The notes below the pieces were generated by a model, which searched no databases, was not told the DNA's origin, and saw nothing but the letters and a program-made list of their open reading frames with translations. A stretch of DNA of 64,000 nt from Escherichia coli. Its GTDB lineage: Bacteria > Pseudomonadota > Gammaproteobacteria > Enterobacterales > Enterobacteriaceae. Of the stretch, positions 62,653 to 63,135 are shown piece by piece. A program made the translations under genes and the position numbers. The first letter of the stretch is position 1. Every line of letters begins with the position of its first letter. Where the stretch lies: the NCBI RefSeq assembly GCF_036507355.1, contig NZ_AP027877.1; one strand, written 5' to 3'.

Positions 62653-63135
62653 TTAAGGGGTAGTAATCACCACTGCGACGCGGCGGTTCTCGGCGCGGCC
62701 CTGGGCGGTCTTGTTACTGGCTATGGGATATTTTTTTCCTAAACCCTGTGTGGTGAGATTGCTGCGCGGAATTTGTCCACCCATAGCCCATGCATCGGCC
62801 ACGACATTCGCCCGTTTCAATGATAAGCCTTCGTTGTAACTATCTTCACCATAGTTATCGGTGTGTCCATCCATACGGGCATGTGTTAGCCCTGTCTAGG
62901 CCAATTTGGCTGCCATGGTTTGGATCTGTTGCTGGCTTTCCGGGAGCAATTTGTAGTCATTTTTTGCGAACAGAATGGCATCTGATAAGCCCAGCGACCA
63001 GTCGCCGGCGGATTCAGTAAATCCATAAGATTGCATAGCGGCGACTTGCTCAGGAGTAAACTTTCCCTGAGGGGACTGGCAGCCAGTCAGTATTAGTGAG
63101 GTGAAAATCAGGGGTGCTACCAGGTGCTTTATCAT
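62653..63135 (-). pseudogene. yfiB: OmpA-family lipoprotein YfiB interrupted by an in-frame amber (TAG) codon
   Basis: ORFs 62896..63135 (MIKHLVAPLIFTSLILTGCQ...AAKLA*) and 62653..62874 (MDGHTDNYGED...) are in the same frame; minus-strand reading across the gap is gcc TAG aca ggg cta aca cat gcc cgt atg. Confidence 0.8.

Follow-up and report, generated by a model that had tools for sequence, protein, structure and literature searches.

In the YfiBNR (TpbB) system of Pseudomonas aeruginosa the lipoprotein YfiB sequesters periplasmic YfiR, so freeing the cyclase YfiN. P. aeruginosa YfiB holds YfiR by a region I in its N-terminal loop (E45, G47, E53, F57) and a region II (R96, I163, V165, P166), residues D102 and G105 form a peptidoglycan-binding site that is required for function, and activation consists of a stretching of the N-terminus coupled with tighter peptidoglycan binding (PMC4887326). 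The role of YfiB in E. coli is less established than in P. aeruginosa; knockout of E. coli yfiB is without effect on the relocation of YfiN under envelope stress, YfiR is a YfiB-independent redox sensor whose inhibition of DgcN is also lifted by reducing conditions without YfiB, and Salmonella runs the module without a yfiB gene (PMC4992967). In Shigella flexneri, knockout of yfiB lowers c-di-GMP from 148 to 83 pg/mL, and biofilm formation, adhesion and invasion also fall (PMC8948675). Degenerate c-di-GMP genes are described from pathogenic E. coli and from Shigella; in S. flexneri, for example, dgcN carries a stop at codon 120, and its overexpression still raises c-di-GMP and yields a band of full-length size that the authors tentatively ascribe to read-through (PMC11327459). 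An interrupted yfiB is itself already catalogued in E. coli PCN033 (NZ_CP006632.1, PPECC33_RS14030), where the RefSeq annotation makes the gene a pseudogene and adds the note "internal stop".

The window analysed here is a stretch of 64,000 nucleotides of E. coli DNA (NZ_AP027877.1) that ends within the same operon. Its minus strand carries at 62653..63135 an ATG to TAA frame of 161 codons (160 sense codons and the TAA when unbroken), interrupted by a single internal stop, the TAG of codon 80, which is CTA on the plus strand at 62896..62898. A sequence-only reading had described two same-frame ORFs parted by this one codon, which when read through would form a continuous 160-aa OmpA-like lipoprotein (AAKLA before the stop, TGLTHARMDGH after it), and had named the gene yfiB; each of these statements is borne out. 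The ORFs are of 79 aa and 73 aa, the latter beginning at Met88 (62653..62874, minus strand), with no signal peptide and no evident Shine-Dalgarno sequence. The read-through product matches Pfam OmpA PF00691 over residues 55-151 (E=1.8e-17) and aligns with the solved P. aeruginosa YfiB structures (E=1.1e-31), the E. coli numbering being that of P. aeruginosa minus 9 in this region. The lipoprotein signal shows LILTGC, with the lipobox L16-T17-G18-C19 at 63079..63090 (minus strand) aligned to the LAGC lipobox of P. aeruginosa YfiB and Cys19 as the lipidated residue; a Shine-Dalgarno-like AAGGA lies 9 nt upstream of the ATG, at 63145..63149 on the same strand.

Gene order, lipobox, OmpA/Pal-like domain and peptidoglycan-binding Asp/Gly are all the same as in P. 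aeruginosa YfiBNR. The 3' part of dgcN (63151..64000, minus strand; codons 126-408 and TAA), open throughout its length inside the window, ends 15 nt upstream of yfiB, and same-lineage contigs contain an intact yfiR, which completes the order yfiR-dgcN-yfiB. yfiB is the final gene of the operon and is convergent with rplS, from which it is separated by a GC-rich terminator hairpin at 62603..62634, and the stop therefore has no downstream target for a polar effect.

Unlike P. aeruginosa YfiB, the window gene is truncated, at the equivalent of P. aeruginosa residue 89, upstream of D102/G105 and of R96/I163-P166. The portion still translated (62896..63135, minus strand) is a 79-aa product that retains the signal peptide, the lipobox and the N-terminal segment with region I, together with only 25 residues of the OmpA-like domain. 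Lost are residues 80-160. With them go about three quarters of the OmpA/Pal-like domain, Asp93 and Gly96 as the counterparts of the P. aeruginosa peptidoglycan-binding pair, and region II with the C-terminal YfiR-contact strand. The conserved DGHTDNYG motif of the domain is present, yet is encoded downstream of the stop, in the untranslated remainder (62653..62895, minus strand; codons 81-160 and TAA), which is 100% identical to the intact allele. With most of the domain, the peptidoglycan site and region II removed, loss of YfiB function is the most likely consequence of the stop.

When the window gene is set against the intact yfiB of CFSAN061763 and C1, there is one difference in 483 nt, a coding-strand C to A at gene nt 239 (window 62897, plus strand T for G) that turns Ser80 TCG into TAG, and this one base also separates it from the commonest intact yfiB allele. 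A difference of a single base could reflect a sequencing or assembly error at a true TCG, a proviso that the sequence-only reading had itself attached, and none of the 5,426 complete RefSeq E. coli genomes contains the identical 483-nt gene, the best reaching 99.8%. However, the window sequence, TAG included, is found at 100% identity in GCA_905398585.1 and SRR31122001, for 9.9 and 9.0 kb reaching the window end, and for 7.1 kb in contig L005, so that no fewer than two further same-lineage assemblies agree with it. The same TCG to TAG change at Ser80 is also present, on other backgrounds as well, in PCN033 and in ENA and Logan contigs (L004-L007, L013 and L014). The proposed comparison of the codon in other E. 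coli gives TCG (Ser80) in intact alleles and TAG in a single one of the 5,419 complete genomes: for the 61-mer with the TAG at its centre, PCN033 gives an exact match and the other 5,418 a match with one mismatch. In addition, all 48 testable K-12 core genes across the window, from recA to rplS, are full length and stop-free with 97.8-100% protein identity; general gene decay, or a Shigella-like genome, is rejected for the window on the same count. On the agreement of independent assemblies and the intactness of the neighbouring core genes, the TAG is judged to be a genuine variant in a clean assembly; error is extremely improbable and the proviso is effectively ruled out.

Searched for by exact match, the 79-aa product turns up on about 70 public contigs (NCBI, ENA, Logan), e.g. 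as WP_000589816.1 and as BED21307.1, the latter on a 4.64-Mb contig, a count that by construction takes in contigs that end at codon 79/80 and so share the same partial product. Among 23 contigs that were read, 17 have the gene neighbourhood of four TAG-verified loci and 6 merely stop at that codon. Contigs L008-L012, which end exactly at codon 79/80, were considered as marks of an insertion or an assembly bubble and set aside; they are retrieved by construction, two of them show the wild-type TC, and they are no evidence for the stop.

The S80* allele occurs on three backgrounds that differ by 1.6-2.1% across the 4 kb upstream: that of the window lineage, that of PCN033 and its like, which carry a P2/186-like prophage between yfiB and rplS, and that of L006-like contigs without the prophage. 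PCN033 yfiB shares the identical change at Ser80 and is identical to the window gene over nt 1-293, but has four other changes in its 3' half, and its locus differs in the prophage, in an intact dgcN and in a background about 2% diverged. The prophage (integrase, CI repressor, CII, Fil, Dhr, GpA) lies at 4478-8061 of the PCN033 locus (L003) and is also found in L004 and L007. Each S80* background is one base from a circulating intact haplotype; in the complete, intact genomes SCU-102 and strain 165 the TAG site is the sole difference from the two non-window backgrounds, 1 in 2,233 and 1 in 8,233 nt. The nearest markers that separate the three TAG haplotypes leave tracts of about 370-525 nt, within which intact alleles are identical apart from the TAG, a pattern consistent with either a repeated origin of S80* or its movement by short recombination tracts of under about 370-525 nt.

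As a control, the other single-step nonsense products of the same yfiB allele were looked up by contig count. S80* products are found on 70 contigs, as compared to 57 for W46*, 18 for S47*, 20 for Q68*, 73 for Q70* and 55 for W116*, while products of 78, 80 and 81 aa, lengths beyond the reach of nonsense mutation, occur on 8, 0 and 1 contigs. Ser80 as a mutational hotspot or a site of specific selection is not supported, the other single-step nonsense products being about as frequent. A 137-aa truncated YfiB (S. dysenteriae Sd197 ABB62822.1 and others) is found on 720 contigs, far above S80*. Frameshift products and junctions with foreign sequence, the latter possibly insertions, are also found around codons 78-83, with S. 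sonnei and E. coli O145:H28 among their carriers. Judged from these alleles, yfiB is a dispensable accessory regulator for which repeated losses are seen in both E. coli and Shigella; S80* is an ordinary, recurrent case of this decay, with nothing special about its site.

The neighbouring cyclase gene appears to be affected as well. In contigs that are 100% identical to the window, and not in the window itself, dgcN Trp105 TGG is replaced by TAG 63 nt past window position 64000 (about window 64063-64065; 5071-5073 of L005, equivalent to 5867-5869 of L014), and this amber and yfiB S80* occur together on 5 contigs. The first dgcN ATG is AAG in the same-lineage contigs, a base change that in the 11-nt gene overlap also gives YfiR N170K; yfiR stays open. 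In the window lineage DgcN is thus probably cut ahead of its GGDEF domain, and the cyclase would be dead regardless of YfiB. dgcN is intact, with 408 aa, in the two other S80* lineages. What is added to the allele already catalogued as a pseudogene in PCN033 is that it is real, that it stands on three backgrounds, that it is not commoner than other nonsense alleles and that in the window lineage dgcN is also broken.

Two further features of dgcN are apart from the amber. The 3' end of yfiR and the first ~250 nt of dgcN (L014 ~5500-5800) carry many lineage-specific differences, mostly at third positions, and dgcN nt 1-519 differ from PCN033-like alleles at 29 sites; this divergent block resembles a segment brought in by recombination more than a product of decay. 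In the complete genomes NZ_CM166354.1 (CH468) and NZ_CP062868.1 (Res13-Lact-PEB01-20) dgcN is split by an insertion sequence, IS1 in one and the IS4-like ISVsa5 in the other, each a separate, additional knock-out of the module.

The pairing of the two lesions could be read in quite another way, as a gain of function in which region I, freed in the 79-aa lipoprotein fragment, would bind YfiR constitutively, and dgcN W105* would be a compensating second-site mutation. The region I residues (P. aeruginosa E45, G47, E53 and F57, E. coli about 36-48) are indeed encoded ahead of the stop, in P. aeruginosa activating mutations act by setting the N-terminal segment free (PMC4887326), and overactivity of DgcN is costly to growth. 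However, YfiB function needs peptidoglycan binding through D102/G105, the region II contacts are gone, and a protein left with a quarter of the domain would probably be unstable. The same stop, moreover, stands beside an intact dgcN in two other lineages, and the similar frequency of many different truncation points speaks for simple loss of function. An active fragment is accordingly given very little credence.

The preferred explanation, held to be very likely, is that a natural nonsense mutation (Ser80 TCG to TAG by one C to A transversion) has made yfiB a recent pseudogene, S80* being one of many loss alleles of a dispensable regulator. Translation would halt after 79 residues, and the product, lacking most of the OmpA-like domain, would fail in normal cell-wall anchoring and in YfiR sequestration and would probably be degraded. 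The stop is single and derived relative to otherwise identical intact orthologues and is reproduced across independent assemblies, and since the downstream half carries no further lesions the inactivation appears to be recent. In the window lineage the whole branch in which YfiB acts on YfiR and YfiR represses DgcN would be decaying, with yfiR still intact.

A functional full-length YfiB, and DgcN, might nonetheless be made if the amber were decoded by a suppressor tRNA encoded elsewhere in the genome or by a raised natural read-through. Both operon lesions in the window lineage are TAG, the frame downstream of the yfiB stop is undamaged, and the base that follows the stop is A (UAG-A), a 3' purine being reportedly favourable to UAG suppression (Bossi 1983). 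Two ambers out of two are weak evidence, because TCG can become only TAG and TGG becomes TAG or TGA, and suppressors are not known to be common among natural isolates. None of the 7 tRNA/tmRNA genes within the window has a CUA anticodon, the anticodons all being ordinary, which counts against read-through and leads to rejection of a suppressor tRNA in the window; and, as the stop is carried by one complete genome among 5,419, it does not qualify as a conserved recoding site, so that the locus lacks both the conserved stop and, within the window, the CUA-anticodon tRNA expected of programmed recoding. The full-length-size DgcN band from the S. flexneri nonsense allele (PMC11327459) speaks for read-through, and yet production of functional full-length protein is considered very improbable here. 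A weaker form, in which both ambers (yfiB codon 80, dgcN codon 105) are partly read through and the module persists at a low, stress-tunable level, would echo that unexplained band and is regarded as very improbable in its turn. Low-level natural UAG read-through of yfiB may occur under the preferred reading of a recent pseudogene as well.

The window allele resembles the degenerate c-di-GMP genes known from pathogenic E. coli and Shigella: in S. flexneri a dgcN nonsense codon ahead of the GGDEF domain interrupts the same operon, and c-di-GMP signalling likewise decays piece by piece. Those alleles differ in having been expressed experimentally, with some found active (PMC11327459). The S. flexneri result means that "nonsense = dead" is not guaranteed in this pathway, and leaves a small probability of residual function.

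The regulatory outcome that had been proposed, in which loss of YfiB leaves YfiR to repress DgcN and output is constitutively low, holds up in part. The loss of YfiB is most likely, and the direction agrees with the S. flexneri yfiB knockout. However, in the window lineage, with dgcN W105*, repression of DgcN by a free YfiR is moot, and output would be expected to be nil whatever YfiB does. In the lineages with intact dgcN "constitutively low" is too strong, given the YfiB-independent release of YfiR, the operation of the Salmonella module without yfiB and the relocation of YfiN in the knockout.

The window lineage is very probably without YfiB/DgcN input to c-di-GMP, which could slightly shift its biofilm formation and motility under envelope stress; beyond strain annotation the finding is of little weight. 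yfiB is, like several c-di-GMP genes of E. coli and Shigella, a dispensable regulator removed time after time by many different mutations, and its repeated loss fits weak purifying selection or a niche-specific selection that acts against the pathway.

Over the 11 kb of core genes at window 51500-62600, no complete E. coli genome among the 5,426 exceeds 99.5% identity, and the source lineage is therefore without a near relative among those genomes. The ypjC/ypjB region and a ypjA-like ORF (43874-45223 and 46030-47658) differ from K-12: ypjC and ypjB, separate there, form in the window one 449-aa ORF of YpjCB type, and the ypjA-like autotransporter ORF has 542 aa, as compared to 1,526 aa in K-12, matches residues 1-498 and appears truncated. 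Between nrdH and ygaM, at 25362-27215, an insert that K-12 lacks carries a 143-aa AhpD/carboxymuconolactone-decarboxylase-like ORF divergent from a 444-aa GntR/MocR-type regulator with an aminotransferase domain. Also absent from K-12 is a two-gene insert between luxS and emrB (9644-11460, minus strand), which encodes a 235-aa protein with a KLDGEN motif (RNA-ligase-like) and a 370-aa protein with HD-domain-like and P-loop kinase-like motifs, and from these motifs looks like an RNA repair cassette.
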